This document shows, one piece after another, positions 3,594 to 62,303 of a DNA stretch of 64,000 bases. The stretch spans positions 56,353-120,352 of the forward strand of contig CAWBPM010000003.1 of NCBI GenBank assembly GCA_963790825.1, given 5' to 3'. The stretch comes from Candidatus Levyibacteriota bacterium. GTDB lineage: Bacteria; Patescibacteriota; Microgenomatia; Levybacterales; UBA12049. Below the pieces are notes generated by a model. It was given only the letters and a program-made list of their open reading frames with translations, had not been told where the DNA came from and ran no database searches. A program made the position numbers and the translations under genes. The first letter of the stretch is position 1; each line of letters starts with the position of its first letter.

Positions 3594-4760
3594 GCACCCC
3601 CCTGTAAGGTTTAATTAGGTACAATTCACTTCCTGAGGTAAGAGAGGGGGTGAATTATGAAACACAAAAAGATAACGCAAACGGAACGGGAATTGTTAGG
3701 CCAGTGGAAGAAGGAAGGAGTAGCGAATAAAGAAATCGCCAGAAGACTGTCTCGTCCCGTCTTGACTATTCGTCGTGAGTTGAAAAGGAATAAAACCAAA
3801 GTTGCTGTTGGCAAAGAGTGGGAATGGATCTACGAACCAATCCATGCCCAGCATGTCGCGATGGAACGGAAACAAAATGCATGGTTGGCTAAAGAGCCGT
3901 TGAAAAACAAAAAAGTATACAAATACGTCATTGACCATCTTCGCGAGAGTTGGAGCCCTGAACAAATATCAGGAAGGCTCAAACATGAAGATCATCCGGA
4001 TGATAAGTCGTGGCATATCTGTATGGAAACCATATACGCTTTTATCTACAAAGAAAAAACTGATATAACAAAACAAGGAATTAAACAACAAAGCATATTT
4101 AATAAACATCTGGCTGGAAAAGACAGAACGGTGGTAACAGTAACGGACTTTGACCGACCATTATACGAGTATTTGAGGCGGAAACAGACAAGACGACGGA
4201 AAAGAAACGGCAGGAAAGTTCATAGGTCACATATACCTGATCGCGTCAGTATTCATAAAAGGCCATTGATTGTCGCCAGACGAAAACAATTTGGTCACTG
4301 GGAAGGAGACAGTATTGTTGGAGATAAACACGCCTCAGGGTTACATACAGAATATGAACGGGTTTCAAGCCTTACCCGATTTGAGCGGATGGTTCGGATA
4401 ACAGCGGCAGATACAGTTATTGCCGGTAAGAAAATATTTAGTCCCTTCCCTGAAAAAGCAAGGCGATCAACAACGCTTGATAACGGACCGGAAAACCATG
4501 GACATACAGAGCTTAAGAAAGACCTATCCATGCAGACATATTTTGCAGATCCATATTCCTCCTGGCAACGAGGAGGAAATGAGAATGCAAATCTTTGGAT
4601 CAGATACTACTTTCCAAAAGGGACTGATTTTAGTACAATCTCAGATGAAGAATTAAAAGACGTTCAGGATGAAATAAACAACCGTCCCAGAAAACGTCTT
4701 AAATTCAGAACGCCTCAGGAAGTATTTTCTGAGTACCTCAATAAACCCTAAAGGGGTGCA
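3594..4760 (+). mobile_element. IS30-family insertion sequence
   Basis: Imperfect ~24-bp terminal inverted repeats: gcacccccctgtaaggttta (3594-) and its counterpart ataaaccctaaaggggtgc (-4760). The transposase stop codon lies inside the right IR, as is typical for IS30. The length of ~1.17 kb fits the family. Confidence 0.55.
3657..4751 (+). CDS. IS30-family transposase (N-terminal HTH plus DDE domain)
   Basis: Carries the GHWEGDSIVG motif, the TLDNGPENHGH motif and the RGGNENANLWIRYYFPKGTDF block that ends with the catalytic Glu region. The ORF is 364 aa. Confidence 0.85.
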   Translation: MKHKKITQTERELLGQWKKEGVANKEIARRLSRPVLTIRRELKRNKTKVAVGKEWEWIYEPIHAQHVAMERKQNAWLAKEPLKNKKVYKYVIDHLRESWSPEQISGRLKHEDHPDDKSWHICMETIYAFIYKEKTDITKQGIKQQSIFNKHLAGKDRTVVTVTDFDRPLYEYLRRKQTRRRKRNGRKVHRSHIPDRVSIHKRPLIVARRKQFGHWEGDSIVGDKHASGLHTEYERVSSLTRFERMVRITAADTVIAGKKIFSPFPEKARRSTTLDNGPENHGHTELKKDLSMQTYFADPYSSWQRGGNENANLWIRYYFPKGTDFSTISDEELKDVQDEINNRPRKRLKFRTPQEVFSEYLNKP

Positions 4761-12195: not shown

Positions 12196-13798
12196 TTCCG
12201 GAAATGGTATAGCCTAAAATCGGTTCGCCTGATGGGAGATTTATTGTGTGCTCAAGATTTTGTGGATTTTGATCGTCTATATAAATTGTGTCCGGCTGTA
12301 ATTTTGTATAATCAATCGAATCCACAAAACTAAATCTTGCGAAACTTTTTACATAGAGAAATCCGTCACTTGTCATTGGGTAATACTCCACTTCTTTTAT
12401 AAATTTTGCCGGATCATATTTTTCATAAAAAAGAAAATAAATATAATGAAAGTCTTCCGGTCCTCGCATAACTACATTATATGTCGGGTACTTATCCGCA
12501 AGTGCTACTGCTTGTTTATTTCCATATCGCCAAAACCGTACCCGTTCAAAATTGAAATGGACAAAATAACCATCAAGAAAGTAGATAATATTAATGATAT
12601 AGAGAAGTGCTATTATGCCGAGAGATAAATAATAAAATCTTTTACCGCGCAGGATATCTATCATCTTGCCGGCTCCATAAGCCATTACAATGGTTGCCAG
12701 GGGAAGTAAAAGAAAAAGACGAGTAGAGTTTGGCGTATCAGTGGTAAGAGAAGATGGAATAGGACCCACTAAAAACCATGGCAGAAGAAAAAGAATTGTT
12801 TTTTCACGATACCAAAATAAAGAAAGTACTCCAATAACCAGCAATAGCGCGTCAAGCAGGTAAAAATTAGCAAAATATCCTAAATTATGCTGGAGTTTTT
12901 CTCCGCCTTTATCAAAAAGGAAAGATGGGGAGAATACGCCGATATAATTCTGTCCAAACTGAGTAAGTACCGCTGCATATTTATTATAGAGTAATTTTTT
13001 AAGAATTGGACTTTCAACTGCTTTATCTGTTTTCAGCTTATCTGCCCTATTATAGATAATATTTGGGTCATTTAAGATTGATAACGTAGAAACCTTGTTC
13101 GATCCGCTTATACTGAGAGTTATAAAAGATATAGAAATGAAAAATAGCATAATCAAAACTGAAATTATTGTCCATTTATCTAAGATAATTTTTCTATAAA
13201 AAATTGCAAGCATTCCGAGTATAAATAAGGGGGTAAATAAGATAAAAGAGTGGTAGGTAAAAAGAGTCAATCCAAAAAGTACAGCTGCGGGAACAAGAGT
13301 TTTTAGCGATTTTTGTTTTTCTGCTAAATACCGGATGAGAAGATAAAATCCAGCGAGAAAAAGAGTTGTCCCGAGATTCACTTCATAGGCTGCCCGTGAA
13401 AAATAGATACTCCAAGGCGAAAAGGCATAAAAAAATGCAGCAAATAATGCTATTTTTCTGTCTTTAAAAAGGAGTTCTGTAATTTTAAAAATAAGAAAAA
13501 CTCCGATAATACCGGAGATTGCGCTCGGCAGACGAACTGCCTCTTCTGTTAATCCAAAAAAAACAATAAACGGTATCGTAATAATTTCATAGAAAGGTAA
13601 TTTCCAGTCACCAAATGACTGTAGTGCCAGCGGAAGAAATTTTCCATGTTCATCTGCGCCCGTTTTAAACAGTGCGTATGCATTATAACCAATTGCAGCC
13701 TCGTCCTGGTTAAGACTTCCGGGAATATTACTTAGCTGATACAGCCTTAAAAAAGCAGCTACGATAAGAATGAGGAGTAAAATATATTTTGATTTCAT
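12182..13798 (-). CDS. PMT/ArnT-like GT-C glycosyltransferase (GT39/PMT_2)
   Basis: The N-terminus reads FLRLYQLSNIPGSLNQDEAAIGYNAYALFKTGADEHGKFLP. It overlaps the downstream gene by 14 bp. Confidence 0.75.
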   Translation of the reverse strand: MKSKYILLLILIVAAFLRLYQLSNIPGSLNQDEAAIGYNAYALFKTGADEHGKFLPLALQSFGDWKLPFYEIITIPFIVFFGLTEEAVRLPSAISGIIGVFLIFKITELLFKDRKIALFAAFFYAFSPWSIYFSRAAYEVNLGTTLFLAGFYLLIRYLAEKQKSLKTLVPAAVLFGLTLFTYHSFILFTPLFILGMLAIFYRKIILDKWTIISVLIMLFFISISFITLSISGSNKVSTLSILNDPNIIYNRADKLKTDKAVESPILKKLLYNKYAAVLTQFGQNYIGVFSPSFLFDKGGEKLQHNLGYFANFYLLDALLLVIGVLSLFWYREKTILFLLPWFLVGPIPSSLTTDTPNSTRLFLLLPLATIVMAYGAGKMIDILRGKRFYYLSLGIIALLYIINIIYFLDGYFVHFNFERVRFWRYGNKQAVALADKYPTYNVVMRGPEDFHYIYFLFYEKYDPAKFIKEVEYYPMTSDGFLYVKSFARFSFVDSIDYTKLQPDTIYIDDQNPQNLEHTINLPSGEPILGYTISGNVKK

Positions 13799-21507: not shown

Positions 21508-22210
21508 AATGTAAATCAAACCATAACTGTAAGCTTTCCAAAACTGCCCGGACAATAACGGGGAAATTCGCTCCGCTTTGGGATCCATACTCTCTGGGGT
21601 AATGATTTACCCCAACTTCTTTTATCCTCAGTTTTTTCTTTTTGGCTTTCGCGAGAATTTCAGTCGAGATCATTGCTCCTTCAGAACGCAGGGGCATAAT
21701 TTTATCAACTGCTTCCTTTCTGAACATCTTAAATGCACAGTCAATATCTTGAAAATAAAAATGAAACAAAATAAAATCTCCCAGTTTCAGTAAATACATC
21801 AGAAGTAATCTTTTGAATAAATTATGATCCTGTCTCCTTTTTCTGAAGCCGATTACTAAATCCGCACTATCAATTTTTTCAATAAATTTCGTTATCTCTG
21901 AAAAATCGAATTGTCCATCCCCATCAGTAAATACAATATATTTATACTTAGCGTTGGTAAATCCTTCTTTTAATGCAGCTCCATATCCGCGATTCGGTTT
22001 ATGAGAAATTATCCGAAGATGGGGGTGTTTTTTTACCAGGGTCTCCGCTCTCTTCAGTGTATTATCCGAAGAACCGTCGTCGATTATGATAATTTCCCAT
22101 TTTTGCGAAACATTTGCGGCAATGGGAATTGCTTTCTCGATTACCGAATCGATATTTTTTTCTTCATTCCAAAAAGGAAAAAAGATTGATAATTCAGGAA
22201 GTTTTTCCAT
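21494..22210 (-). CDS. GT2 polyprenyl-phosphate sugar synthase (DPM1-like)
   Basis: The N-terminus reads LSIFFPFWNEEKNI...IIIIDDGSSDNT...GYGAALKEG...VFTDGDGQFD. Confidence 0.8.
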   Translation of the reverse strand: MEKLPELSIFFPFWNEEKNIDSVIEKAIPIAANVSQKWEIIIIDDGSSDNTLKRAETLVKKHPHLRIISHKPNRGYGAALKEGFTNAKYKYIVFTDGDGQFDFSEITKFIEKIDSADLVIGFRKRRQDHNLFKRLLLMYLLKLGDFILFHFYFQDIDCAFKMFRKEAVDKIMPLRSEGAMISTEILAKAKKKKLRIKEVGVNHYPREYGSQSGANFPVIVRAVLESLQLWFDLHYGRT

Positions 22211-23891
22211 ACGTGTTTCTCTTTTTCCGTTCTATTATTATACCAGTTAGAATCCCGACTATACCAGTAATGCTAAGTAAATTCCCCATTTTTTCAACCG
22301 GAGTCTGTATAAATTCGGCTTCAATCGTATGGATTCCTCGCGGTAGTGAAACATCATATCCAAAATTAGTTTCATCCGGAACTATTTTTTGCCGGTCAAG
22401 AAAAAACTGCCAGCTCGGATAGACAGCCAGATTAAAATGGACTACTACTTCGTTTTTATCTTCAGTTTGAACTGATATTCTCTGGGTTTTTTCTGAAATA
22501 GATAGAATTTTACCATTCTTCATAACTACTCTTTGCACCGGGATATCGTGAATAGTCTTTGGTTTTGTAAAACCAATTGGCAAGTACTCGTCGGTAAGCC
22601 GGGACGCATCCCAGCGGACTGCCTGAAGTGACGTATAGTCATTTACCGATTTAAGAAGTATTTTTTGCGGAACGAAGAGCTTTGCTTGCATATAGATCAC
22701 TCCAAAGATAAGAACAACAGCTACTGCCAAAGATGTAGATCGGAATTGTTTAAATATAAATCCCATAAACCAGGTGGTAAAACCGGTAAGAAATGAGGAA
22801 GCAAAAGAGATAAGTATAAGAAACCGCCAGGGATATTGCAGAAAGGCCATCGGCTTTACCAGCTCCCAAAAAGATCTTGAGACATCAAGTGTTAAGAAAA
22901 TTGAGACAATTAATAAAATAATTGCGAAAAGACTGACTGAAAATTTTACCTTGTCTTTTTGAAAAATAAACGGGATAAAAAACAGTGACAAAACAGAAAG
23001 AAGGATTGCCAATTTCCCGATTCTAAAAGATAACCCGTCTATACAACCCGGGCCGGAGCCTCCATATCCCCACGGACTATTCCAAAGCTGTGTTAAGCAT
23101 ACAAAATGTTCATGAAAATCCGCGCTTCCCCCGATTTGCGAAAGGACGTTTGTATACTTAATCTCAGAAAGTGCCGGAAGAAAGTAAAATCCGGAGAGAA
23201 GAACTCCCAATAATAAAGTAGCTCCTAATAAATAGAGTATTTTTTTCTGATTTGCTTTACATGCTTTAAAGCAAAGAACAAGTAATGCGAGAAACAGGAA
23301 GGGCGTAACCATCATTCCGGTCAGATTATGTGACAAAATAATGCCCGAAAACCCAATTGAACCGATAATGACATACCGCCATTTTGGATTTTGATAAACT
23401 TTCCAGATTCCATAAAACGCCAGCGGAATAAAACTGTAGGCGAAAAACTCAGCCACATCTCCCCGAACGTAAATATCAACTGCATGATACGGGGCATACA
23501 AATAAAATAATCCCGCAACAACACCGCCTGTTTTTCCCCAAAATTCCCGGGCCAAAAGATACATTGTAATACCTGAGAAAATAATGCCGAACCCGAACAT
23601 CAGTTTTGTAGCCGTTAATGCATCAAAACCGGTTAACTGAAATATTCCGCCAATATAATATGCCATAGGCCCGTAAAAATTAAAAATAGGATATCCATAT
23701 CCATATCCTAAGTCCGCTACCCAGCGGACCGGGAACATTCCGTCCCCTATTGCTTTGCTCATTTCAAATACCCTGGCAACTTGTGTATTATCATGCATCG
23801 GGAAAAAACCCGCCATAAAAAGCGGCTTGACCGCCCAGTATGACAGACAAAGTAAAATTAATATTGGTATAATTTCCCTAAATTTATACAT
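22194..23891 (-). CDS. Uncharacterised polytopic membrane protein, GT-C-like; paralog family member 1
   Basis: The N-terminal region reads GFFPMHDNTQ...GMFPVRWVADLGYGYGYPIFNFYGP...YAPYHAVDIYVRGDVAEFFAY. It ends in a ~150-aa soluble C-terminal domain and has paralogs at 23909-25567 and 33048-34748. Confidence 0.5.
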   Translation of the reverse strand: MYKFREIIPILILLCLSYWAVKPLFMAGFFPMHDNTQVARVFEMSKAIGDGMFPVRWVADLGYGYGYPIFNFYGPMAYYIGGIFQLTGFDALTATKLMFGFGIIFSGITMYLLAREFWGKTGGVVAGLFYLYAPYHAVDIYVRGDVAEFFAYSFIPLAFYGIWKVYQNPKWRYVIIGSIGFSGIILSHNLTGMMVTPFLFLALLVLCFKACKANQKKILYLLGATLLLGVLLSGFYFLPALSEIKYTNVLSQIGGSADFHEHFVCLTQLWNSPWGYGGSGPGCIDGLSFRIGKLAILLSVLSLFFIPFIFQKDKVKFSVSLFAIILLIVSIFLTLDVSRSFWELVKPMAFLQYPWRFLILISFASSFLTGFTTWFMGFIFKQFRSTSLAVAVVLIFGVIYMQAKLFVPQKILLKSVNDYTSLQAVRWDASRLTDEYLPIGFTKPKTIHDIPVQRVVMKNGKILSISEKTQRISVQTEDKNEVVVHFNLAVYPSWQFFLDRQKIVPDETNFGYDVSLPRGIHTIEAEFIQTPVEKMGNLLSITGIVGILTGIIIERKKRNTYGKTS

Positions 23892-23908
23892 AAGTTAAGA
23901 TGAAAAAG

Positions 23909-25567
23909 TTAAAACTCAAACTTTTGTCTTGGCAACAGACTTAAAAAAATAAGTACGACCAAACCGACTAATGAGATCATATCGCTTACAAGTCTCATTG
24001 GAGTTTCTGAAAATTTACCTATAACAGTGTGCTGCCCCTGTGGAACTGCTATTTCCATTACTCCTAAATCATTAGTATATGTAATTTTGCTGTTTTTATC
24101 ATCCACACTAATATTCCAGCCTGGATAATAAATTGTATTAATTCGTATGAGACTAGCTGACTTAAGATCGAGATTAAAACTTATAAAGTGTGAATTAGAG
24201 GAAATATTCTGAATTTTTCCCTTTCCATTTATAAGTTCTACTTTTTTATCAGGCCTTTGAGACGGTTCTGTTCTCACCCATAACGGCATTAACTCCTGAG
24301 ATGAAGTAGTTGTGGCATCGTTTGTTAAATAATATTGATCTCCTTTGTCAATATAATTAGACGGCTTTGCGTGAGGAAAAATAAGAACCACTGCCAATGC
24401 GCAAAGACAAACAAGGGTGTATTTCATTATCTTATTTTGGATCCACAGGAAACCGGAAAGTAAACTTATCAGAAATCCGATAGGGCTAAGCAGAGTCCAG
24501 GGATAATTAATTTCTTTTAACAAAGGTGTTATCTGCCAAATGACTCCGGTAAAAGAAAACATAAGCAGAATGAAAAGAACTGTTGCTGCTGCTAAAATAG
24601 CTGTAAGTTTAAAATAAAACGTTTTTATTATTTCTCTCTTAATCAACCACAAGTAAAGTAAAAAGCCAATAATTAAGAACAATACAACAATTTGCGCTAA
24701 GCCGATTTGATATGAAAAACCGTCAGGCTGATTGGGAAGACCATATCCCCATTTGGGAATAATGATCTGGTAAAGATGAACAAAATAGATATTCCTGTCC
24801 GCGATAGGAATCTTGGAAAGAAGTATATTGTGTTTTTCAAGAAGTGCAGGTAACCAGAAAAACGCTGACAGTGCGTAGCTTAATATGATAAACAGTAGGG
24901 ACTTTACGAAGCCTTTTCCTTTTGCCAGATATAATTTGAATCCGATAAAAAGAAGAAGAAGCGGCGTAAAAAGCAGTGCCATAATATTATGCGACATAAC
25001 AAGGAGTGCATAACTTATCGGTCCCAAAATGATATAACGGTTAGATTGTTTTTCATCTAATATTTTTGCTGCACAGAAAAGAATAAGCGGGAAAAGAGCA
25101 AACGATAATGACTCTCCCACAGATCCCCTGGCGTAGAGATCGACGATGCGATACGGAAGATATATATACAGAATTGCACTGATAACTCCCGAAAACTTAT
25201 TCTTCCAGACTTCATTTGAAAGCAGATACATGCCGACTCCCGAAATGACAACACTTAGTGCAAATAAAAGCTTTAAACTATTGACAAACCCGAGTTTAAA
25301 AAAATGGAAAAGCGTGCCAATATAATACGGTGCCGGGTAGGTAAAATTAAACAGAGGGTAACCATAACCAAAATTAAGATTTCCGCTGTAGCGTACCGGA
25401 AATTGATGATCCCTGAGACTTCGAAACATATCCCCGAGCCTTACAACAGCCCACTCACCATCGTGCGTCGGAAAGTATCCCGCGTGAAAATAAGGCAGAA
25501 TAACTGGTACTCCGATAATGATTAAAAAAATAATAATGAAAAATGGACTGACAAACCGTTTTATCAT
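23909..25567 (-). CDS. Uncharacterised polytopic membrane protein, GT-C-like; paralog family member 2
   Basis: The N-terminal region reads GYFPTHDGEW...HQFPVRYSGNLNFGYGYPLFNFTYP...YLPYRIVDLYARGSVGESLSF. It sits in tandem with paralog 1. Confidence 0.5.
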   Translation of the reverse strand: MIKRFVSPFFIIIFLIIIGVPVILPYFHAGYFPTHDGEWAVVRLGDMFRSLRDHQFPVRYSGNLNFGYGYPLFNFTYPAPYYIGTLFHFFKLGFVNSLKLLFALSVVISGVGMYLLSNEVWKNKFSGVISAILYIYLPYRIVDLYARGSVGESLSFALFPLILFCAAKILDEKQSNRYIILGPISYALLVMSHNIMALLFTPLLLLFIGFKLYLAKGKGFVKSLLFIILSYALSAFFWLPALLEKHNILLSKIPIADRNIYFVHLYQIIIPKWGYGLPNQPDGFSYQIGLAQIVVLFLIIGFLLYLWLIKREIIKTFYFKLTAILAAATVLFILLMFSFTGVIWQITPLLKEINYPWTLLSPIGFLISLLSGFLWIQNKIMKYTLVCLCALAVVLIFPHAKPSNYIDKGDQYYLTNDATTTSSQELMPLWVRTEPSQRPDKKVELINGKGKIQNISSNSHFISFNLDLKSASLIRINTIYYPGWNISVDDKNSKITYTNDLGVMEIAVPQGQHTVIGKFSETPMRLVSDMISLVGLVVLIFLSLLPRQKFEF

Positions 25568-27216
25568 AATGCGACAATTTTATATGCAACTCTCCCGTCG
25601 GGAAAGCGAATTTCTTCTTTCATTTGTCCAATACCTGCCGGAATTTCAAGCGGCGTACCAATGAGCAGCGTCTTTTTCATGGTTAATTGTTTTGCTGTAA
25701 TATTTGCAAATTCATACTTGCCAATTTTGCGGTAAAATCTGGCAACTATTCCATCTCCGCTATAATTCCAATTCTTCTGATACCACGTCGGATCAATTTT
25801 AGCGTAAAACAAATAATAAATATATGGCTGATCATACGCATAAGTCATAATGATATGCGTATACTCGCTCTCGTGCTGTTTTGCATACATTACCGCCTGC
25901 TTATTACCATATTGCCAAAAATAGCCATATTTAATCGGCGTCTCTACATAGTAACTATATAAATAGTATATTATGTTTAAACAAAACAAGAGGATAATGC
26001 CAACAGTTAATACTCTGCCTGCCAGTTTCTTTTTCTTAAGATATAGCAAACAGCAAATAAAACCGGCTGAAGTAAAAATTTGAAATGCGGGGATCATCGC
26101 AATTGCCCTAACAGGCTGCGGCGTACCGGTTGTGATCGCTGCCGGAAGAGGGGCTAAAAGAAAGAGCAGAAACAAGAGAACAATTCGTCTATTCCTTTTT
26201 TTATATAAAAAAATAATACCCAAAATAATAAAGGGGAAATCCCAAAGATACAGCATTCCCATGTTATATGCATGATGCTGGACACCACCGTCTCCACGGA
26301 GAAAAAGGAAATTAAAATTAAAATGATCAAAGTATCCATTTATAACTTCGGGAATAAAAATAACCCGTCTGTTATATAAAATTTCCTTGATGACGTCGTG
26401 ACTTTTTTTCGCTACCAATTCCTGTTGGGCCGAGAGCTGCTGAAGAGCGGGATCTGAAAAGACTGTCACCATAGAAAGCCTTGCTCCGGTTCCTTGCGAC
26501 TGACTAAAGCTGGTGTAAACAGGTAAACAAGCCAAAATAATAAGCAGTAAAGATACGCTTACAACGAGTTTTTGTTTTAATAAATCTTTATAGAAAAAGA
26601 GGCAGAGAATGACAAGAAGAATTGGATTAATAAGCCGGAAACTATGGTATGAGTAAAGACTTAGAATAAAAAAAACCGCAAAGAGAAGATAATACCGGCT
26701 TTTTTTTATTCCTTTGAAAAAGAAAAGGAGTGCCAAGATAAGAAAACACATACCGATATTACCTTCAAAGGCTGCACGGGAAAATTGCAAATGCCATGGC
26801 GAAACCGCGAGAAAAAAAGACGTCCCGAGTGCGATCCATTGTCTTTTCTGCTTATCCCAGTTCTCCAAAATCTCAAGAACAAAAAAATAGACTGCTATAA
26901 CGGCAAGAACACCGATAATAGCTGCCGGAAAGCGGACGACAAATTCTGTGAGACCGAATAGGGCAATTGCCGGAACTGTTAAATAAATATAAACCGGTGG
27001 TTTATAGTCATCAAATGAGCGAAAACTCAAAGGAAATTTGTTGCCGTACTCGTCAGCACCGGTTTTAAGTATCGAATATGCATTATATCCAATACTTGCC
27101 TCGTCCCAATCAAGACTGGGAGGATTCAGACCAAGCTCATAAAATCGAAGCACGATTGCAAGTACCGTTATGCTTATGAAAAGTAGTAAGATGTAGTACT
27201 TGTGTAGTATATTCAT
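25564..27216 (-). CDS. PMT/ArnT-like GT-C glycosyltransferase (GT39/PMT_2)
   Basis: The N-terminus reads VLRFYELGLNPPSLDWDEASIGYNAYSILKTGADEYGNKFP. It overlaps both flanking genes by 4 bp. Confidence 0.75.
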   Translation of the reverse strand: MNILHKYYILLLFISITVLAIVLRFYELGLNPPSLDWDEASIGYNAYSILKTGADEYGNKFPLSFRSFDDYKPPVYIYLTVPAIALFGLTEFVVRFPAAIIGVLAVIAVYFFVLEILENWDKQKRQWIALGTSFFLAVSPWHLQFSRAAFEGNIGMCFLILALLFFFKGIKKSRYYLLFAVFFILSLYSYHSFRLINPILLVILCLFFYKDLLKQKLVVSVSLLLIILACLPVYTSFSQSQGTGARLSMVTVFSDPALQQLSAQQELVAKKSHDVIKEILYNRRVIFIPEVINGYFDHFNFNFLFLRGDGGVQHHAYNMGMLYLWDFPFIILGIIFLYKKRNRRIVLLFLLFLLAPLPAAITTGTPQPVRAIAMIPAFQIFTSAGFICCLLYLKKKKLAGRVLTVGIILLFCLNIIYYLYSYYVETPIKYGYFWQYGNKQAVMYAKQHESEYTHIIMTYAYDQPYIYYLFYAKIDPTWYQKNWNYSGDGIVARFYRKIGKYEFANITAKQLTMKKTLLIGTPLEIPAGIGQMKEEIRFPDGRVAYKIVAL

Positions 27217-28904
27217 TGTCGTTCGATCAAAATATATGCTGGTTCATTATAGGGATAAGTGATAATATTTTGGCCGTCGAGTGAAACAACATTCCTCATC
27301 GGATAATAAAATGTTTTAATTATTCCGGCATCCAGCGGTAGTTGTTTTCTGTTTGTAATATATAAAGTATTTTTCTCTAAATTAGTAGTCTCATCAATTG
27401 TTTGATACTCAAATTTCCCTGCTTTTGCAAGCGTTACTAACGCGCCGTCTTTTCGATATATTGCTTGTTTTTGATAAGTAGCCGGATCATAACCGCTATA
27501 GAAAAGAAGCGAGGTATAAGAGAAGTCTGTTGATGTGTCAAAAATAATTTTGTTGTATGTTTTTTGATGCTGCATTATATATGTAACAACCTCCGGGTCG
27601 GGAGATCGCCAAGATTGGGCACCAGTTATAGGAAATTGATAGAGGTAAGAAGCGAGAAAATATATGACAGCGTAAAAAACGATAAGGCAGCTTATTATAG
27701 TAGTGATATTTTTTATAAAAGTCATTTTTATTGTACGAATTTTCAGCCAAAGATGTACAATACCGACTGCAGAAAAAATTGTAAACGGCAAAAGAACAAG
27801 GTAGTTTCTCGTCGGTTGCGGTACATCAATGATAAGACAACCAACAATAAGTACCACTGCAAACCATATATATATTGGCTGCCAATATTTTTCTTTTGAT
27901 TTCAGCATGATAAAAAAACCGTATGGTATTGTTATCGCCTCAAAGATGTAAAACATTCCCACATTTCCTATTCCATCAATTAGGTTATCTGCACCATGAA
28001 CAAAGAAAAAATCAACAGAAAAGAATCTGACATAATTGGTAAAATATTGCCAAATAATAAGCGTCCAATTATTAAAAAACAATTTTATGATAGGCAGCGG
28101 AAGCGGAGACAGATTGCTGCGAAAATTAAGGTTTGTCACACGAAAAACATGGCCGATGAGAAGCAGGTCCTGCTGATTATTTATTCCGGACTGAGAAAAT
28201 AGAGTCAGTATGAGGGGAAGTATAGTAACAATTGCAAAAGACAGTGCAGCGACCAGCGCCTTTTTATTAAACCGCATGATGTCCTTCCGGTAAAATAACA
28301 ATAGCAGGACAAAGAGTAACGGCGAGGTAACCCGTGTAACATTATAGGTGTACATCGCAATACCAAACGTGATTATAGACAAAAAAAGGTAGATAATTTT
28401 TTGGGACTGCATACTTTTTATCAACATCCAGACGCCAAGCAATGTAAACATAAACGCCACATTTACTTCAAATGCAGCTCGCGAAAAAAAGATATGCCAT
28501 GGGTTAATTGCCAGTAGCGCAGAAGCAGTTATCGCTATCGCAGTTCGTTTGCTAAGATCTTTGAGGAAAAAATACAAAAAGAGTACAGTAAAAAATCCGG
28601 AAATTGCAGAAAAGAAACGAATGGCAAACGGAGTCATTCCAAACAGTTTTATCGATGCCACAGTCGTATAAATATAAACCGGCAATTTATAGTCATTGAA
28701 CGACTTAAAATACAAAGGCATTTTCACTCCGTATTCATCCCGCCCGGTTTTAAGAATTGAGTATGCGTTGTACCCTATTGCAGTCTCGTCTTTATTTAAT
28801 CCGTTTGGTATTTGGTCAAGATGGTAAAAGCGGAGAAAAAACGCGGAAAAAAATATCAGCAGTAACAACAAGGTGGAATAGCTAATGCGAATGCGGTTAT
28901 TCAT
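27213..28904 (-). CDS. PMT/ArnT-like GT-C glycosyltransferase (GT39/PMT_2)
   Basis: The N-terminus reads FLRFYHLDQIPNGLNKDETAIGYNAYSILKTGRDEYGVKMP. Confidence 0.75.
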   Translation of the reverse strand: MNNRIRISYSTLLLLLIFFSAFFLRFYHLDQIPNGLNKDETAIGYNAYSILKTGRDEYGVKMPLYFKSFNDYKLPVYIYTTVASIKLFGMTPFAIRFFSAISGFFTVLFLYFFLKDLSKRTAIAITASALLAINPWHIFFSRAAFEVNVAFMFTLLGVWMLIKSMQSQKIIYLFLSIITFGIAMYTYNVTRVTSPLLFVLLLLFYRKDIMRFNKKALVAALSFAIVTILPLILTLFSQSGINNQQDLLLIGHVFRVTNLNFRSNLSPLPLPIIKLFFNNWTLIIWQYFTNYVRFFSVDFFFVHGADNLIDGIGNVGMFYIFEAITIPYGFFIMLKSKEKYWQPIYIWFAVVLIVGCLIIDVPQPTRNYLVLLPFTIFSAVGIVHLWLKIRTIKMTFIKNITTIISCLIVFYAVIYFLASYLYQFPITGAQSWRSPDPEVVTYIMQHQKTYNKIIFDTSTDFSYTSLLFYSGYDPATYQKQAIYRKDGALVTLAKAGKFEYQTIDETTNLEKNTLYITNRKQLPLDAGIIKTFYYPMRNVVSLDGQNIITYPYNEPAYILIERQ

Positions 28905-30426
28905 GTAATTTATAGACAGTCAAATAGTTATTTGTGCCTCTTTGGATTTGCAGTACCGGAGTAAGCGGCCAACTAAGAGGTGCTATACCCGCAACAGGAC
29001 ACATAGGACACGGCTGATAAAATACGACGTAGACACTCTCCTGACGACCGGCAGCAATTAGATTTTTTAGTGCAAGGTCATTAACCGGCCAAAAGCCTTT
29101 AATTGTTATGTTGGGATTTTTAATCAGATAAAGCTCGTAGGATGCCGGCATCAAGCCAAATGTTCCCTCGGTAGTGATATAAATCTTTTCTTTTTGTGCT
29201 TGCGCAGTGAAAAATGCAATTGATTCTTTTATTCCACCACCCGAGGGCCAATCAGTACTGTATTGGGTTATATCTGAGTTTGGAATCGGTGAGGAGGAAA
29301 AATTAGTCAGTATTAAAACGTCAGTAGCTATTGTATAGAAAAAAAGGGCGATGAGAAGCGCAACTTGTAAAATTTTAGAGCGAAAGTAAGATAAGTAATT
29401 TGTGTAGATACGAGCCAGGCTATAAGCAATAAGCGGCAGAAGAGACAGTGTCATGAAGAGAATAAAACGGGGATAGATAACTTTTCCAAATAATGCCAGT
29501 CCAATAAACGGAATAATAAACCATAAAAAAAGCAGTACCTTTTCTCTTAAAAATTTCCAGTCAATCAGAAATGCTCCTACTGCAAGAAGTATATAAACGA
29601 TCCCCATATAAGTAACAAACCAGCTTACCTGTCCGGTTAGGTTACCAAAGAAAAAAGTAAGTGGATGCCTCAGCCAATCCGATAAGGGATAAACAAATGT
29701 CGCATTCTTCTGCGCAATTATATGAAAAAACGGCGAGAGTCGAAGTACGTTGTAAAATGCATATGTCAATATAGTCGTAATGATTGCCAGTCCTGTCCAT
29801 TTGAGAAACCTGGTAAACTTTTCTTTCTTTTTGAGATCAAAGAGTATGAGGGAAAAAGGCAGAAGATAAATGTTAAAAAAGCCATTCGATTTATTGAGAA
29901 CACTGGCACCGGTTATAAAAGATAAAATAAGTGCCAGATCAAGCCGTATATAGCGGATTAATAGAATCTCCAGGTATAGTCCCCATACGGTAAATGTACC
30001 AATTAAATCATCATAGAGTGCCATCCTGTCATAAACCAAACCGAATGGATAGATAACATAGAGAAATGCGGCAATGATGCCTACCCACTTGTTTTTAAAT
30101 GTCTCGCGACCCAAGAAGAACAGTCCGAGTGCGGTAAAAAATCCTGCCACTGTGGAAACAAATCTTCCGGCAAAAAGCGGATCATGAAATATTATCAGGA
30201 AAGAGCTTACTAACCAGATAAAAAGCGGTTGTTTTCCGTCGGTCAGTGAAATAAAACGCCAATTAGGATCTTGCCGGGCAATTTGCGCCCAGCGTAGGTA
30301 AATTGCTTCATCGGTAAAAATCGGAAGATTCGTGAGGTGAAAAAGCCGCGTAGCAAAATAGACAAGTACGAGAATTGCACCAATCAGAAGTTCCAGTTTA
30401 TACCTTCGGAAAAAGGCCATAATCAT
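28897..30426 (-). CDS. ArnT/PMT-like GT-C glycosyltransferase (GT39/GT83-like)
   Basis: The N-terminus reads ATRLFHLTNLPIFTDEAIYLRWAQ, a DE motif after TM1. It has a polytopic topology and overlaps the downstream gene by 8 bp. Confidence 0.65.
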   Translation of the reverse strand: MIMAFFRRYKLELLIGAILVLVYFATRLFHLTNLPIFTDEAIYLRWAQIARQDPNWRFISLTDGKQPLFIWLVSSFLIIFHDPLFAGRFVSTVAGFFTALGLFFLGRETFKNKWVGIIAAFLYVIYPFGLVYDRMALYDDLIGTFTVWGLYLEILLIRYIRLDLALILSFITGASVLNKSNGFFNIYLLPFSLILFDLKKKEKFTRFLKWTGLAIITTILTYAFYNVLRLSPFFHIIAQKNATFVYPLSDWLRHPLTFFFGNLTGQVSWFVTYMGIVYILLAVGAFLIDWKFLREKVLLFLWFIIPFIGLALFGKVIYPRFILFMTLSLLPLIAYSLARIYTNYLSYFRSKILQVALLIALFFYTIATDVLILTNFSSSPIPNSDITQYSTDWPSGGGIKESIAFFTAQAQKEKIYITTEGTFGLMPASYELYLIKNPNITIKGFWPVNDLALKNLIAAGRQESVYVVFYQPCPMCPVAGIAPLSWPLTPVLQIQRGTNNYLTVYKLHE

Positions 30427-52591: not shown

Positions 52592-52817
52592 ATTACCTCC
52601 TTCCTCAAGAAAAATATCAGATTCTGCTGAAAGATACCTTAATATAGATAGTTATTTAAAAAAGCTTGTATCATCAATACATTTTTTTACAAAATACGCA
52701 AGTAATACAAACTCCAAAAGTTGCATATCGCCGTATGGTAAAGATTTAAGTTATGAAAACGACTAAAAACATGTAAGGATTTAGCAATAAAGCGAAAGTG
52801 GATGTAAAATAAAAATT

Positions 52818-54554: not shown

Positions 54555-55068
54555 ATTAATTTATCTTACATAGGATAGTAAAATGCGATCGGGTTTTTGG
54601 GGAAAATTTAGAAAATAGTTTTGGGTCAAGAAAGGAAAAAGAAGATTATTTATAACTAAATTTAGATTTGATATTGGTAGAATTTTTTTTAAATTCCGGC
54701 AGTTTAAAGCCATGCTGGAATTATAACATGACTTATAAGTATGTCAAGTACCCTGTAAGAATTCAAGCAATAGGTTGTAAGAGAAACGCAAGAAACGCTT
54801 GAGACGTTGATGCAAACTACTGCTGAGATTATATCTTATAATGATAGGATAAACAAGATAATTCAACAATGAAAAGTTAGGTTATTGATAAACAAATTTA
54901 TCTATTGTAAGAATATTTATATAGGATGTAAACGACTTCTCAATTATTCAGGCTCTACAAGAAGAATTTATAAGTTACGAAACATATTAGACAATTCGTA
55001 ACTATGGATCATTACGCAAAAGCATATCCAATCTTTAGTAGAATCAAAGGCATTGAGGAGGTGAAAAC

Positions 55069-56092
55069 AATGCTGAGGAGTCTAAAAAGATTCTCTAAAG
55101 ATGAAGTAGCTAAAGAGAGACTAAAGATAATAGAGTTTTATGATGAGTATGGAGAGAAAACTACTAAGAAAGCATTTGGTGTTGGAAGAAACACTATCTT
55201 TGTATGGAAGAAACGATTACGGATGAGTAGGAATTCCATTTCTTCACTTATTCCCACTCCAACAACTCCGAAAACAAAAAGAGTCATGGAAACCCATCCT
55301 AAAGTAGTTGCATATATCAAGCTCTTAAGAGAAGAGCATGTGAGACTGGGGAAAGAGAAAATTAAACCATTGCTCGATGAGTACTGTCTAAAGGAAGACC
55401 TGCCTATTATTCAGGAATCAACCATTGGGAAAGTCATCAAGCGTAACAATTACTTTTTTCAAAAGAGTGGCAAGATCTATCATAATCCCTCCCATAAGTT
55501 TGCCCAGGCCAAACGAAAGAAGCGAGACAGGATTAAAAGACCACCCAGACCGGAAAGCTTTGGCTATATGGAAATGGATACAGTGATTAAATTTGTTGAT
55601 GGAGTAAGAGTATTCTTTTTAACAGCAATTGATGTGAAGTTAAGGTTTGCATTTAGCCTGCCTTATACAAAACTGACGAGCGGTGTAACTGTAGACTTCT
55701 TCAAGAAACTGCAGTTTGTTTATCCCATTCAAATTACCACCATACAAACAGACAATGGACTGGAGTTTCTGGGGGATTTTGAAGCATACTTGAAACAACA
55801 ACATATCCATCAGGTATTTATCTATCCAAGATGCTGCAAGATCAATGGAACTATTGAGCGATTCAACAGAACAATTCAGGAAGAATTCATTGATGAAAAT
55901 CTTCATTTATTCCATGACCCGAAACTCTTCTCTTCAAAACTCATTGAATATCTGCTATTCTACAATACAAAGCGGGTACATAAATCCTTGGGACTTAAAA
56001 CTCCACTGGGATATCTGCAACAACAAGGAGGTATGTCTAATAACTCCGTAACCTCTACACTACATTGTAATTGTACTATTATATTGTTATAA
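55069..56092 (+). CDS. IS481-like transposase (integrase core rve domain with N-terminal HTH)
   Basis: The DDE triad context is MDTVIKF...IQTDNGLEF...INGTIERFNRT. The strong SD GAGGAGGTGA at 55052-55061 favours the ATG at 55069 over the track start at 55004. Confidence 0.65.
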
Positions 56093-58016: not shown

Positions 58017-58125
58017 TATGCTCACCCCCTTTCACCATTAAAAATATAATGACGCTTCAGCTTATGAAATTAACAAAAATAATGTAAGGAATAAGAAAGA
58101 AAAATGGTTTTGCCCTCATTTTTAG

Positions 58126-58835: not shown

Positions 58836-59202
58836 ATTCTTCTTCACCCCCTTTCATTTTTTTATAATACATAAGTTTTCTTTAAAACAGCTGAAAATAT
58901 TGACATTTCATCCAGATACATAAATATCAACAATTGTATATACAAGAGTCATAATAAACAGTAAGCTTAAGAGAATTACTAAAAAAAGGTAAGGAATAAG
59001 AAAGAAAAGCGGGATAAGAAGAATTTATCCAAATATGAAGAAGAATAAACTATACTATAGATAGATTAGATAGATTACTATTTCTTTACTATAGTCAATA
59101 GCTTATAATATAGTGAGATCTAGAAAGTTTCTGATGTGGTTGAAAAATACAACATCAAGCTCATGGTAATTTGGGTTATATTTTAGTAAAATTATCAGAC
59201 AT

Positions 59203-59273
59203 TGCCGAATCGTCTAATGGTAGGACAACGGACTCTGAATCCGTTTATCTTGGTTCGAATCCAGGTTCGGCAG
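59203..59273 (+). tRNA. tRNA-Gln (anticodon CUG)
   Basis: Manual fold: acceptor TGCCGAA/TTCGGCA (U1-A72), discriminator G73, D-arm GTCT-AATGGTA-GGAC, anticodon stem ACGGA/TCCGT with loop CTCTGAA, T-arm CTTGG-TTCGAAT-CCAGG. Confidence 0.8.
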
Positions 59274-59338
59274 CTGCGACCGTACAAAAATACATACCCC
59301 TGCTGTACTTTGTAAGAACTCCTTGATATACTTTCTGC

Positions 59339-59749
59339 ATGGAATTAAAAGTACTAGTTGTTGGTGTTATTAAAAAGGATAACCAAATACTCCTTCGCAA
59401 AAAACCTGATGGATCACCTCCTTATAAAGAAACATGGTATCTTTTTAGCGGTGAACTAAAAAATGATGAGATACCAGAAATTGTAATAAAGGAAGCTGTA
59501 AAAAAACACACTGGCATTAATATCAGAATGGTTAAACCTATTAATTGGGATACTGAGATCAAAGAAGATCTTGATGGTGTCATAAAAAATTTTGTTTATT
59601 TAGATGTAGAATGTGATTATATAGATGGAGAGTTGCAAAAAGGAGAAGGTATCGAAAAATTAGAGTGGGTAGACATTGATAAATTAGCTCAATATGATAT
59701 CGTACCTCCTTCAAGAGTATTATTTGGAAAATTAGGATTTCTTAAATAA
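59339..59749 (+). CDS. NUDIX-like hydrolase with a degenerate Nudix box
   Basis: GELKNDEIPEIVIKEAVKKHTGI approximates Gx5Ex7REUxEExGU, and the length fits a Nudix fold. The ORF is 136 aa. Confidence 0.4.
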   Translation: MELKVLVVGVIKKDNQILLRKKPDGSPPYKETWYLFSGELKNDEIPEIVIKEAVKKHTGINIRMVKPINWDTEIKEDLDGVIKNFVYLDVECDYIDGELQKGEGIEKLEWVDIDKLAQYDIVPPSRVLFGKLGFLK

Positions 59750-59750
59750 A

Positions 59751-59783
59751 AAGTTCCAACGTTGTTCAGGCTTGCCAGCTAAT
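59751..59783 (+). repeat. Intergenic repeat, module A (partial copy)
   Basis: aaaagttccaacgttgttcaggcttgccagct matches 60261-60292 at 30 of 32 positions. Confidence 0.6.
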
Positions 59784-59831
59784 ATTAATCCTATAGTTGA
59801 AAGTAGTATTAATTTGTTGTAAAATGTCTGG

Positions 59832-60257
59832 GTGTCTGAAAGAGAAATAAATACAGGAAACAATGAATCATTCCCTCAAAAGATGGCTCGTGGCTGTATT
59901 TTTTTAACACAAAAAGAAGCTAAGTTATTATATCTTCGTAATGGGAGACAGCGTAAGAATATATCAGCAACCATTCAAAATCTAATACAGCCTAGAATTG
60001 ACAGACTAAAAAATACTACCCCAGAAGAACGAGAAAGCATGCTTAAAGGATATCTCGGGCAAGTTATAAGTAGATCAGAGATAGGGCTTGAATCTTTTGA
60101 AACAGGAAATTCCCCTCCATTTATAGAAGTTAACTGGGTTCTCCCTAAAACATTCATTGACATGATAGGTAATGTCGCTGATCTGGGCAGGCTAAGTAGT
60201 GAAAGTTTAATGAGCTGTATGCTCTCAGATGTTTTAAATATGAGGGAGAGTAGTTAA
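59832..60257 (+). CDS. Hypothetical protein flanked by module-A repeats
   Basis: A 141-aa ORF with no recognisable domain. Confidence 0.3.
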   Translation: MSEREINTGNNESFPQKMARGCIFLTQKEAKLLYLRNGRQRKNISATIQNLIQPRIDRLKNTTPEERESMLKGYLGQVISRSEIGLESFETGNSPPFIEVNWVLPKTFIDMIGNVADLGRLSSESLMSCMLSDVLNMRESS

Positions 60258-60260
60258 CAA

Positions 60261-60330
60261 AAAAGTTCCAAGGTTGTCCAGGCTTGCCAGCAAGATTGGA
60301 CACTAAGCGACCGTAAGCCCTAAAAAAGCC
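60261..60330 (+). repeat. Intergenic repeat, full unit (module A plus module B)
   Basis: The A part (aaaagttccaaggttgtccaggcttgccagc) is fused to the B part (aagattggacactaagcgaccgtaagccctaaaaaagc). It contains an imperfect hairpin, ccaggcttgccagcaagattgg. Confidence 0.6.
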
Positions 60331-60579
60331 CAGGTGTACCTTCAAATTCGAAGAGCATTTCAAAATTAAAACATTCGGACGGTACGCTCGCCGCCCAGAA
60401 AAAGACCATAAAATGGTTCTTTTTTGCTAGTTATAAGGATAAATTATAGCCAAAATTCTCACTGGATGCTGAAGTCGGGGTGAGAATCCTGTTTTTATCC
60501 ACAAATTGGGATTCGAACTAAACCACCCGATAATAAGTTATTCATTAAAACGAGATTTGAGCTATAATTTGTAATTAGA

Positions 60580-61611
60580 ATGATAAAACCAGCAAAACTT
60601 AAGAAAGGTGACGTTATCGGGATAATTTCCCCATCTTGGGGTGGTCCAAGTGTTTTCCCACATATTTACGAAAATGGTTTAAAAAATCTAAAAGCGCTTG
60701 GGTTTGAAATAAAAGAATTCCCAACTGCTAGAGGTGACGCAAAATACCAATATCAGAACCCAAAAATTAGAGCTGAAGACGTAAATGTAGCCTTTGCAGA
60801 TAAAGAGGTCAAGGGAATAATTACTACTATTGGTGGGGATGATTCAGTAAGAATCCTGCCGTTTTTAGATAAGGAAGCCATATCTAATAACCCCAAATTT
60901 TTTATGGGTTATTCTGATACAACCATTCTGACAACATTTATTCGTAGCTTAGGAATCGTTAGTTTTAATGGACCAAGTATTATGGCAGGATTTTCTCAGA
61001 TGGAATCGGAAGGAGATAGTTTCAAAAAACACCTAGAGGATTTTTTGTTCGGAGATTATAACGAATATGAATATAAACCCTACGAATACTATTTTAACAA
61101 CTATCCAGACTGGAAAGATGTAGCAAACATTGGAAAAGTATCCGAACCTGCAAAAACTACTGGGTGGCAATGGCTGCAAGGAAATGTGACGGTTGATGGA
61201 GAACTTTTTGGAGGTAATATTGAAGTTTTAGAATTTATAAAGGGGACAGATTATTGGTTTGATAAAAACTTTTGGAATGAAAAAATACTGTTTTTTGAAA
61301 CTTCAGAAGACAAACCAACAGTAAGCCAGGTAAAGTTTATGTTACGAAATTACGGAACTCAAGGGATATATGACAAAGTGAAAGCAGTATTGTTCGGACG
61401 GGCTAGAGATTACTCCGAAGAAGAAAAGAAAGAATTAGATACAACTCTCACTAACGTAATTGGATTTGAATTTGGAAAACCAGAACTACCAATTATTTCT
61501 AATATGGATTTTGGTCATACCGACCCACAAATTATTCTCCCGCTTGGTGTAAAAGCTGAATTAAATGCCACAAATAAATCATTTAAACTTTTGGGGAGTC
61601 TGTTTAGTTAA
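60580..61611 (+). CDS. LD-carboxypeptidase (peptidase S66; LdcA/MccF-like)
   Basis: Carries DVIGIISPSWGG...IITTIGGDDSVRILPFLD...FMGYSDTTIL, giving the Ser nucleophile context. A C-terminal His/Glu region is present. The ORF is 343 aa. Confidence 0.7.
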   Translation: MIKPAKLKKGDVIGIISPSWGGPSVFPHIYENGLKNLKALGFEIKEFPTARGDAKYQYQNPKIRAEDVNVAFADKEVKGIITTIGGDDSVRILPFLDKEAISNNPKFFMGYSDTTILTTFIRSLGIVSFNGPSIMAGFSQMESEGDSFKKHLEDFLFGDYNEYEYKPYEYYFNNYPDWKDVANIGKVSEPAKTTGWQWLQGNVTVDGELFGGNIEVLEFIKGTDYWFDKNFWNEKILFFETSEDKPTVSQVKFMLRNYGTQGIYDKVKAVLFGRARDYSEEEKKELDTTLTNVIGFEFGKPELPIISNMDFGHTDPQIILPLGVKAELNATNKSFKLLGSLFS

Positions 61612-61656
61612 CATTATGGCTGTCTGAATACTAAGGCTGTAGTGAGAATCATTTTC

Positions 61657-61765
61657 TGGCAGCAAGATTGGACACTAAGCGACCGTAAACTCTAAAAAGC
61701 TTGAATTTGCTTGCTAAGTGTCATTTAATTGTTGGAAGTTTCGGACCACACGCTTAGTGTTCAGA
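61657..61765 (+). repeat. Intergenic repeat, module B copy plus two inverted copies of the ACACTAAGCG core
   Basis: ctggcagcaagattggacactaagcgaccgtaaactctaaaaagc (module B). Then comes gcttgctaagtgtc (inverted, 1 mismatch) and cacgcttagtgttc (inverted). Confidence 0.55.
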
Positions 61766-61788
61766 GGCAAATTTGCTAAAATAATTTT

Positions 61789-62175
61789 ATGAAAAAGATA
61801 TTAAGACCAAAGGATGTAGATACTTACATCGCTGGGATGCCGAAGGAAATCCGCGGCACACTATCTGAGCTTCGCCGTGTAATTAAAGAAGCTGCGCCGG
61901 AAGCGAAGGAGAGTATTAGTTATGGAATGCCTTTTTATGAATATGGTGGCTCGGGATTTAAGGGACGGCTTATTTATTTTGCCGTGTCAAAAAAAGATAT
62001 TACTGTATATATCCCTCCCACGCGTGCAGGAGAATCACTGGACGAGCTTAAGAAATATCAAGCGACGAAATCATCTTTTCATTTTCCTTTGGACAAACCG
62101 TTTCCTTTTGAGCTTATTGGTAAAACAGTACGGGAAATTGTAGAAAAAGTAAATAAAAGCGGAAATCGAAGCTAG
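61789..62175 (+). CDS. DUF1801 (YdhG/YdeI-like) family protein
   Basis: The product reads ...YIAGMPKEIRGTLSELRRVIKEAAPEAKESISYGMPFYEYGG... It ends in TAG. Confidence 0.5.
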   Translation: MKKILRPKDVDTYIAGMPKEIRGTLSELRRVIKEAAPEAKESISYGMPFYEYGGSGFKGRLIYFAVSKKDITVYIPPTRAGESLDELKKYQATKSSFHFPLDKPFPFELIGKTVREIVEKVNKSGNRS

Positions 62176-62300
62176 GGAGAGAATCCAAGCTCCGCAGCAA
62201 AATACTTAATCGATAAAAAGGGAATTATACGACGTACATATTTCGGAGAAGGAGAATACGATAAAACAGAATTAGCAATTCAAACATTACTTAAAGAATA
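62176..62300 (+). pseudogene. Remnant C-terminal fragment of a TlpA/ResA-like thioredoxin gene
   Basis: Translates to YLIDKKGIIRRTYFGEGEYDKTELAIQTLLKE*. This is near-identical in pattern to residues EYLIDANGTIRRTEFGEGKYDQMEMTIRSLLQE of the downstream DipZ-like gene. It has no own start and sits in frame behind the DUF1801 TAG. Confidence 0.45.
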
Positions 62301-62303
62301 AAT

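Follow-up and report, generated by a model that had tools for sequence, protein, structure and literature searches.

A candidate array of small mobile gene modules at the 3' end of a tRNA-Gln gene in a Levyibacteriota genome

Bacteria of the Candidate Phyla Radiation (CPR, Patescibacteria) have tiny genomes, and gene exchange among them is little understood. Among the described systems closest to the locus reported here, Xer-dependent elements (IMEX) and the pdif modules of Acinetobacter plasmids are small, recombinase-less, bounded by short sites and moved by a host tyrosine recombinase. Elements of the IS200/IS605 family insert immediately 3' of a short specific sequence, carry a similar sequence at their right end and cause no target duplication. 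tRNA-seeded islands arise via successive integrations, as in the tycheposons of Prochlorococcus (Hackl et al., bioRxiv 10.1101/2020.12.28.424599). In the literature, no description of cassette arrays or tRNA-linked islands in CPR bacteria was found. Here we analyze a stretch of 64,000 nt (the window) from a Candidatus Levyibacteriota bacterium (assembly GCA_963790825.1, contig CAWBPM010000003.1, positions 56,353 to 120,352 of the forward strand), in which positions 59275-62198 are read, with a probability of roughly 0.6, as an array of small mobile modules inserted successively at the 3' end of a tRNA-Gln(CTG) gene and moved by a putative, unlinked site-specific recombinase. At this locus and its relatives, which span several lineages, individual genes (NUDIX, peptidase, DUF1801, ORFan, aldo-keto reductase, nucleases) are exchanged at a single nucleotide behind tRNA-Gln.

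Arms, element E and breakpoints behind tRNA-Gln

The order of elements is tRNA, NUDIX gene with arm A', ORFan with arm A, element E with a hairpin and a degenerate arm, S66 peptidase gene with its arm, E with the DUF1801 gene and its arm, and finally a truncated redoxin gene (Table 1), with joints after 59274, 59779, 60291, 60502, 61663 and 62198. Four units (NUDIX, ORFan, S66 and DUF1801) can be distinguished, all on the plus strand like the tRNA and each with an arm at its end. The array was confirmed by a second, independent assembly (Logan contig L001), which is sequence-identical to the window from 59236 through the window end.

The first-pass annotation of the window, made from the sequence alone, had singled out two repeated modules arranged as A, A+B and B around individual genes, and both exist as claimed. 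Module A is found at 59742-59779 and 60254-60291 (identity 34/38) and module B at 60285-60326 and 61657-61698 (39/42), with the middle copies fused at 60254-60326 and overlapping in TG(C/G)CAGC; the copies of A bracket the ORFan gene and those of B the S66 gene, as had been described. Two copies of each occur in the 64-kb window, where shuffles expect 0, and no further copy was found in the 7.6 kb past the window end that L001 provides; within the ~72 kb surveyed for repeats, both modules are confined to the array. A miniature inverted-repeat transposable element or a repetitive extragenic palindrome family, which had also been offered as a label, can be set aside, as the modules come without dispersed copies, terminal inverted repeats or target-site duplications. 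The exclusion of a CRISPR array holds, the spacing being 512 nt for A and 1372 nt for B and the two modules being different. The earlier account was incomplete in that B is just the 5' ~35–40 nt of a ~100-nt element, here called E, and in that the tRNA-Gln anchor and two joints (60502/60503 and 62198/62199) were overlooked.

The 3' end of the tRNA-Gln gene (...GAATCCAGGTTCGGCAGC, with the joint between 59274 and 59275) is the primary insertion point, and the intact tRNA gene forms one border of the array. The motif GAATC-N9-CAGC, which comprises the T-loop, the 3' strand of the T-stem, the 3' strand of the acceptor stem, G73 and C74 of tRNA-Gln, occurs three times in the 64 kb against 0.47 expected, in all cases on the plus strand: in the tRNA, at 61646-61663 and at 62181-62198. 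In 40 fetched loci, all matches to it were either a tRNA-Gln end or an independently identified arm. Two of the arms match this tRNA 3' motif exactly, so that the target for the next insertion would be re-created by the arm. The joints read ...CAGC/AA... or ...CAGC/T..., and because CAGC corresponds to A72-G73-C74 of the tRNA, the tRNA is never damaged. Within the arms the spacing of GAATC and CAGC is fixed and the 9 nt between them are variable, which looks like selection for recognition and not like neutral decay. When likened to tRNA-Gln 3' halves, the DUF1801 arm gave z=7.1, and a 38-nt copy of the tRNA-Gln 3' half in locus L031 gave z=11.5. A tRNA origin of the A-type arms is only suggestive. 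In L031, a sequence resembling A comes after the stop codon of S66 (16/21, shuffle p=0.004). A candidate tRNA fragment at 60508-60518 (GGGATTCGAAC) was rejected, having no ARAGORN call and a poor profile score.

Element E begins with AAGATTGGACACTAAGCGACCGTAA and has, in the aligned copies, the layout AAGATTGGACACTAAGCGACCGTAAGCCCTAAAAAAGCC ... TTCGGACCGTAC ... TTCAG. Copy 1, of the S66-linked type, shares 90% identity with the E that lies directly against tRNA-Gln in L041, and copy 2, which contains GCTTGCTAAGTGTC at 61709-61722, is 81–83% identical to E of L016, L017 and L031. Exact matches to a 21-mer of B came from two genomes of GTDB and from three metagenome contigs of JGI. E starts on the nucleotide right after tRNA-Gln(CTG) in L031 and L041-43, and in a Gottesmanbacteria-type locus (L014/L016) the tRNA is followed by 14 nt, 20 nt that duplicate its 3' end exactly (together a 34-nt scar) and then E. 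The 5' 43 nt of E are 98% identical across genomes whose tRNA-Gln genes are just 72–80% identical, a pattern difficult to account for unless E has spread horizontally or is very strongly constrained. BLAST searches of phage and plasmid collections gave no match to E. Rfam searches of the window and related loci returned only tRNAs, with neither E nor the arms matching any family; RNAalifold gave weak consensus folds (-6 and -12 kcal/mol, at most 2 compensatory pairs) and no covariation for E or the arms on either strand, and single-sequence folds were no better than shuffles. No supporting feature was found for E as a tmRNA, an IscB/omega RNA, a Tn7-like end or a group I/II intron; an HNH protein encoded in L013 matches IscB in the HNH motif only, with 27 bits against a cut-off of 175.

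The 10-mer ACACTAAGCG is present as an exact copy at 60300 and 61672 on the plus strand and at 61751 on the minus strand. Of two inverted copies reported after the last copy of B, the one at 61751 is thus real, and the other (61713-61722) matches in only 8/10 positions. Where this one copy has the perfect inverted 10-mer (61751-61760), the other aligned E copies have unrelated bases, so that the 10-mer is peculiar to a single copy and its proposed operator-like nature is unsupported. The shorter recurring motif GCTG(A/T)AGT..GTGAGAATC is genuinely present at 60468 and 61636 and is kept in L039 and L041.

The bracketed genes are variably present in relatives, with breakpoints exactly at the repeat joints, which bears out the earlier suggestion of gene cassettes bounded by recombination sites. 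In L041-43, tRNA-Gln is followed directly by E, hairpin, degenerate arm, S66 gene and arm; these loci lack the units of NUDIX and ORFan, as does L039. Window positions 60292-61663 and L041 positions 222-1588 are 86.4% identical (90.3% in the non-coding head), compared to 65% for the adjoining tRNA-Gln genes, which argues that the unit travelled without the tRNA and yet inserted at an identical nucleotide position. In L039 the unit of E, S66 and arm is placed 90 nt after its tRNA-Gln, and homology with the window ends at the left joint and ~10 nt beyond the right CAGC. L041 and L042 encode an identical S66 protein and agree up to CAGC, save for position 1304, and are unrelated after it. The S66 arm is thereby shared by the window, L039, L041, L042 and L043 with four right-hand neighbours, switching at one nucleotide. 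The DUF1801 unit shows 85% homology to L004-7 through its arm, ending at CAGCA, with an E-like head next in L004-7, and homology of the S66 gene to L031 begins at 60506, beside the degenerate internal joint. On these alignments the joints are true breakpoints, and one unit has moved between lineages. The contigs of L041-43 carry k141-style names; if this denotes k=141, chimeras across an arm of ~30 nt would be unlikely.

The L001 assembly starts at window position 59236, 33 nt inside the tRNA-Gln gene, and several related contigs likewise end near joints. Such contig ends are consistent with strain heterogeneity at the locus.

Proposed mechanism and its alternatives

We propose that the modules would excise as circles and that conservative site-specific recombination would insert these at a site of two parts, composed of a tRNA-like arm, CAGC and AAgaTTGGaca. 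The gene for the recombinase would lie in another part of the genome and its product act in trans, as for integron cassettes or Xer-dependent elements, and each unit would bring a fresh copy of the target via its arm. The copies of A would then be the arms of two neighbouring modules, the copies of B the E heads of two modules, and the fused A+B a single joint of arm and E. E and the arms may in addition carry promoters or terminators for the cargo. A broader notion, which we entertain only tentatively, is that CPR bacteria may possess an integron-like gene capture of their own, with the tRNA-Gln(CTG) 3' end as primary site, cassette arms as GAATC-N9-CAGC mimics, E as the partner arm and an unlinked recombinase that would carry cassettes in trans from lineage to lineage. 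Should a dedicated recombinase exist, gene capture of a new and compact kind would be at hand, which might also serve for inserting DNA site-specifically; if the units are no more than relics, the signature of GAATC-N9-CAGC and E offers a simple finder of hypervariable loci in these genomes.

Several results weigh against modules mobilized in trans. No tyrosine or serine recombinase or resolvase was detected with Pfam in 30 open reading frames (ORFs) of the window, including all those around the array, where the first-pass annotation had suggested looking for one, and none was found in ~20 kb around the Gottesmanbacteria-type locus L016. HUH enzymes were likewise absent from these regions and from the cargo ORFs, and neither circular junctions nor products of excision were seen. 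Roughly every second module has no E-like head at its start. The A-type arms did not align significantly with tRNA-Gln in a global alignment test, so that an early idea of A as a clearly decayed tRNA end was abandoned, and 8/11 nt before their CAGC match one tRNA-Gln. The joint at 60275-60302, TGTCCAGGCTT-GCCAGC-AAGATTGGACA, has an 11-6-11 layout and is 9/11 palindromic, compared to an 11-nt arm match of 5–7/11 at the tRNA/E joints and 4/11 at 61647-61674; a dif-like palindrome is thus good only at the A/E joint and was rejected as a general feature. Furthermore, the comparison loci are all metagenomic contigs, mostly short and many below 3 kb.

Other searches for recombination functions were also negative: Pfam revealed no integrase in the L013, L015 and L016 loci, and NCBIfam and PHROGs no recombinase among unannotated ORFs. 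The attC or integron label given to the repeats in the first-pass annotation is not upheld, as no intI was found, the integron core GTTRRRY is absent at the joints, and DNA folds of four joints on both strands yielded no attC-like structure (z -1.8 to +0.9), with a modest hairpin at the A/E joint alone (-7.6 kcal/mol). At distances of 3 and 55 kb from the array there are two DDE-type transposase-like ORFs, and nothing examined ties them to it; the one at 55004-56092 has rve integrase-core domains and ends 8 nt before a response-regulator gene, and the one at 3657-4751 has an IS30-type HTH_38 domain.

First among the alternatives in our order of belief, although we consider it unlikely, is a series of integrase-bearing islands or prophages that inserted successively at tRNA-Gln, each displacing its predecessor outward, and were then deleted down to one cargo gene and a partial-tRNA att repeat, leaving relics. 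Partial tRNA repeats beside tRNA genes are commonly explained in this way (as in tycheposons, bioRxiv 10.1101/2020.12.28.424599), and such a history would agree with the lack of a recombinase in the scanned ORFs, with the degenerate arm at 60466-60502, with the truncated redoxin gene flanking the last joint and with the scar-like 20-nt tRNA duplicate only 14 nt from the tRNA in L014/L016. It does not account well for an intact 1.4-kb unit in at least three genome types, with tRNAs 65–81% identical and both neighbours differing, and no integrase fragment was found in any of ~10 loci. Moreover, the arms hold GAATC and CAGC at fixed spacing while N9 varies, and they differ from the resident tRNA, unlike the displaced host halves that would be expected.

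Homologous recombination or natural transformation, with the arms and E as mere homology anchors at which RecA splices in DNA of relatives and with single crossovers of circles duplicating A and B, is ranked second and is likewise improbable. Lengths of 38 and 42 nt are about the minimum for RecA-dependent exchange. The duplicated stretches have just these lengths, and the pattern of A, A+B and B is exactly what Campbell-type insertion within A and B predicts. In addition, the shuffling of integron cassettes through transformation is documented (PMC12614218). However, L041 and L042 part at one nucleotide with right sides lacking homology, the right sides of the window and L039 are unrelated too, the redoxin gene is cut at a joint where no homology exists, and the breakpoints lie at CAGC in all comparisons made.

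We give very little credence to homing endonucleases, i.e. to free-standing GIY-YIG or HNH enzymes cutting at the boundary of tRNA-Gln and E, with break repair copying DNA in and the arms and E as co-converted flanks. Small GIY-YIG genes do adjoin tRNA-Gln in L013 and L039, the source genome has another 9 kb downstream (L001 8534-8803), and one of the units in L013 is an HNH gene, but the array in the window contains no nuclease gene, most cargo (NUDIX, S66, DUF1801, aldo-keto reductase) is unrelated to nucleases, and the tRNA-like 3' arm of each unit is left unexplained. Least credible of all is a purely regulatory role, with A, B and E as tRNA-Gln 3' trailer, processing signals, terminators or operators repeated per gene: E is strongly conserved and co-oriented with tRNA and cargo, arms sit directly after stop codons, the Y-type modules of L016 described below end 0–8 nt before start codons and the perfect inverted 10-mer of one E copy overlaps a promoter-like site, but there is no Rfam match, the folds are weak, essentially free of compensatory changes and no better than shuffles, a convergent gene follows E in L031, so that E is no leader there, the inverted 10-mer is unconserved and strain-level breakpoints remain unexplained.

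Cargo and neighbouring elements

The features of the array are collected in Table 1. The NUDIX unit begins with GCGACCGTAC (59277-59286), possibly a relic of E. The ORFan has an alternative ATG at 59865 and a promoter-like site at 59797-59825, and no homologue was found for it in 5.8 billion protein clusters, nor any family match in Pfam, NCBIfam or PHROGs. The A/T-flanked hairpin that follows the first copy of E looks like a bidirectional terminator. The degenerate arm resembles the arm sequence at 61636-61663 and is conserved in L039 and L041. Homologues of DUF1801 with 81–88% identity sit in unrelated contexts, and the loci around them (L003-L012, L038) show unrelated synteny and neither A nor B; among these loci, L004-7 became informative through profile searches. 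The thioredoxin-like fragment is 62% identical at the amino acid level to residues 380-413 of the DsbD-Trx protein encoded downstream (62305 onward; E=6e-13), and the similarity begins at 62197, i.e. at the last joint. Homologues of the NUDIX, S66 and DUF1801 proteins carry Patescibacteria or Pacebacteria labels in their source records, which would point to a CPR-like organism.

Table 1 Features of the array and its borders, in window coordinates.
Feature	Position	Strand	Basis and remarks
tRNA-Gln(CTG)	59203-59274	+	ARAGORN; Rfam 63 bits
Unit a, NUDIX gene 59339-59749 (Pfam)	59275-59779	+	Ends in arm A' 59742-59779 (...CAGGCTTGCCAGC)
Unit b, 141-aa ORFan 59832-60257	59780-60291	+	Ends in arm A 60254-60291
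E copy 1 (S66-linked type)	60292-60398	+	nhmmer E=6e-33
A/T-flanked hairpin AAAAAGACCAT-AAA-ATGGTTCTTTTTT	60399-60425		Direct sequence reading
Degenerate arm ...GTGAGAATCCTGTTTTTATCCAC, then AAATTGGG	60466-60502	+	Internal joint 60502/60503, degenerate
S66 LD-carboxypeptidase gene 60580-61611 (Pfam) with its own 74-nt upstream region	60506-61611	+	blastn boundaries versus L031/L032
S66 arm ...GGCTGTAGTGAGAATCATTTTCTGGCAGC	61630-61663	+	GAATC-N9-CAGC match; joint 61663/61664
E copy 2	61664-61764	+	nhmmer E=4e-35
DUF1801 gene, cargo of the last unit	61789-62175	+	Pfam
DUF1801 arm GGGAGAGAATCCAAGCTCCGCAGC	62176-62198	+	GAATC-N9-CAGC match; joint 62198/62199
Thioredoxin-like 3' fragment, 34 codons (..KYLIDKKGIIRRTYFGEGEYDKTELAIQTLLKE and stop)	62199-62301	+	Truncated at joint; distal array border

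A second conserved non-coding unit was observed at such loci (L001 5990-6102, ~1.2 kb past the window end; L016 4549-4662; L017 1620-1724; L028 5256-5366). It consists of a block TTCCTTTTATAGTGTCTCATTTAG (P), a variable hairpin and a Y module (..ATAAGGAT..GGTCCTAGACC..TGCTCAGC), ending 0–8 nt before start codons. In L016, 5–6 Y modules lie between consecutive small genes, and in L017 Y abuts E. The Y module shares a GGTCC..CC-N8-CAGC spacing with the L016 tRNA-Gln and is not in Rfam. A scan of viral contigs with the P block gave 13 matches, of which only L028 was relevant, and A, B and the Y module gave 0 matches each in viral contigs. L028 (IMG/VR UViG_3300020195_001307) contains a 9,117-nt unit head to tail with 100% identity, which may represent a circular element or an assembly artefact, and carries a terminase, two DNA methylases, a ribonucleotide reductase and a NUDIX gene preceded by a P+Y unit.

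Further elements were noted at the tRNA-Gln genes of related loci. Directly upstream of tRNA-Gln in L016 (1128-1228) lies a tRNA-Gln-like pseudogene that received no ARAGORN call; ~30 nt are inserted behind its D arm, its T arm is degenerate, and its CTCTCAGC resembles an anticodon loop. In L031, the S66 gene and one gene next to it lie between two direct repeats of ~105 nt (ATGCACCCCTAGTGACCCGAGTGCC...; 2411-2515 and 4405-4505), of which the first comes directly after the 38-nt tRNA-Gln 3' half (2368-2405). L013 shows the same layout of tRNA-Gln, arm, E and Y, with GIY-YIG and HNH genes as units; its label as Gammaproteobacteria may not fit, because all other loci with these elements look CPR-like. 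The window itself contains 58-nt A-rich repeats at 52735-52792, 58046-58103 and 58951-59008 (67–78% identical, ending in GTAAGGAATAAGAAAGAAAA), two of them just upstream of the tRNA-Gln region. On the minus strand, tandem ORFs of 510–565 aa with internal 40-nt similarity are found among glycosyltransferase genes at 8945-13798 and 22194-30426.

Comparison with described systems

Like integron cassettes, the units are co-oriented, mostly single-gene, equipped with a 3' site of their own and stacked at one primary site; their cargo is likewise often ORFan or miscellaneous, and the content varies among relatives with breakpoints at the sites. In contrast to integrons, there is no adjacent intI, the joint is CAGC/AA instead of G/TTRRRY, attC-like hairpins are lacking, the primary site is the end of a tRNA gene, and a promoter or terminator of their own seems to be present in at least some of the units. 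With Xer-dependent elements and pdif modules the locus shares recombinase-less modules and, at the A/E joint, the 11-6-11 layout, whereas no similarity to the dif consensus was noticed, the other joints are non-palindromic, the sites are direct rather than alternating, and the target is a tRNA end and not the terminus dif. IS200/IS605 elements are comparable in inserting 3' of a short sequence, with a similar right end and no target duplication, but differ in that here no TnpA or TnpB was found, no subterminal hairpins are conserved at both ends and many units are without a conserved left end.

Compared to tRNA islands, no element-encoded integrase was found beside att in the scanned units or flanks, while direct repeats of the tRNA 3' part are present at the inner and distal borders (61646, 62181). 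Since the defining features of integrons and of integrase islands were lacking, the locus is not counted as a member of either. The likeness to tycheposon islands extends to the tRNA border, the partial copies of the tRNA 3' end between inserts, the pushing of older inserts outward by newer ones and the variable cargo. The units are, in contrast, only 0.5–1.4 kb in size, with a single gene and without integrase or replication module, and the crossover point appears to be the extreme end of the tRNA, after C74, and not a position inside it. The arms are furthermore mimics that differ from the resident tRNA, and the locus has in E an extra element of ~100 nt that is better conserved than the tRNA itself.

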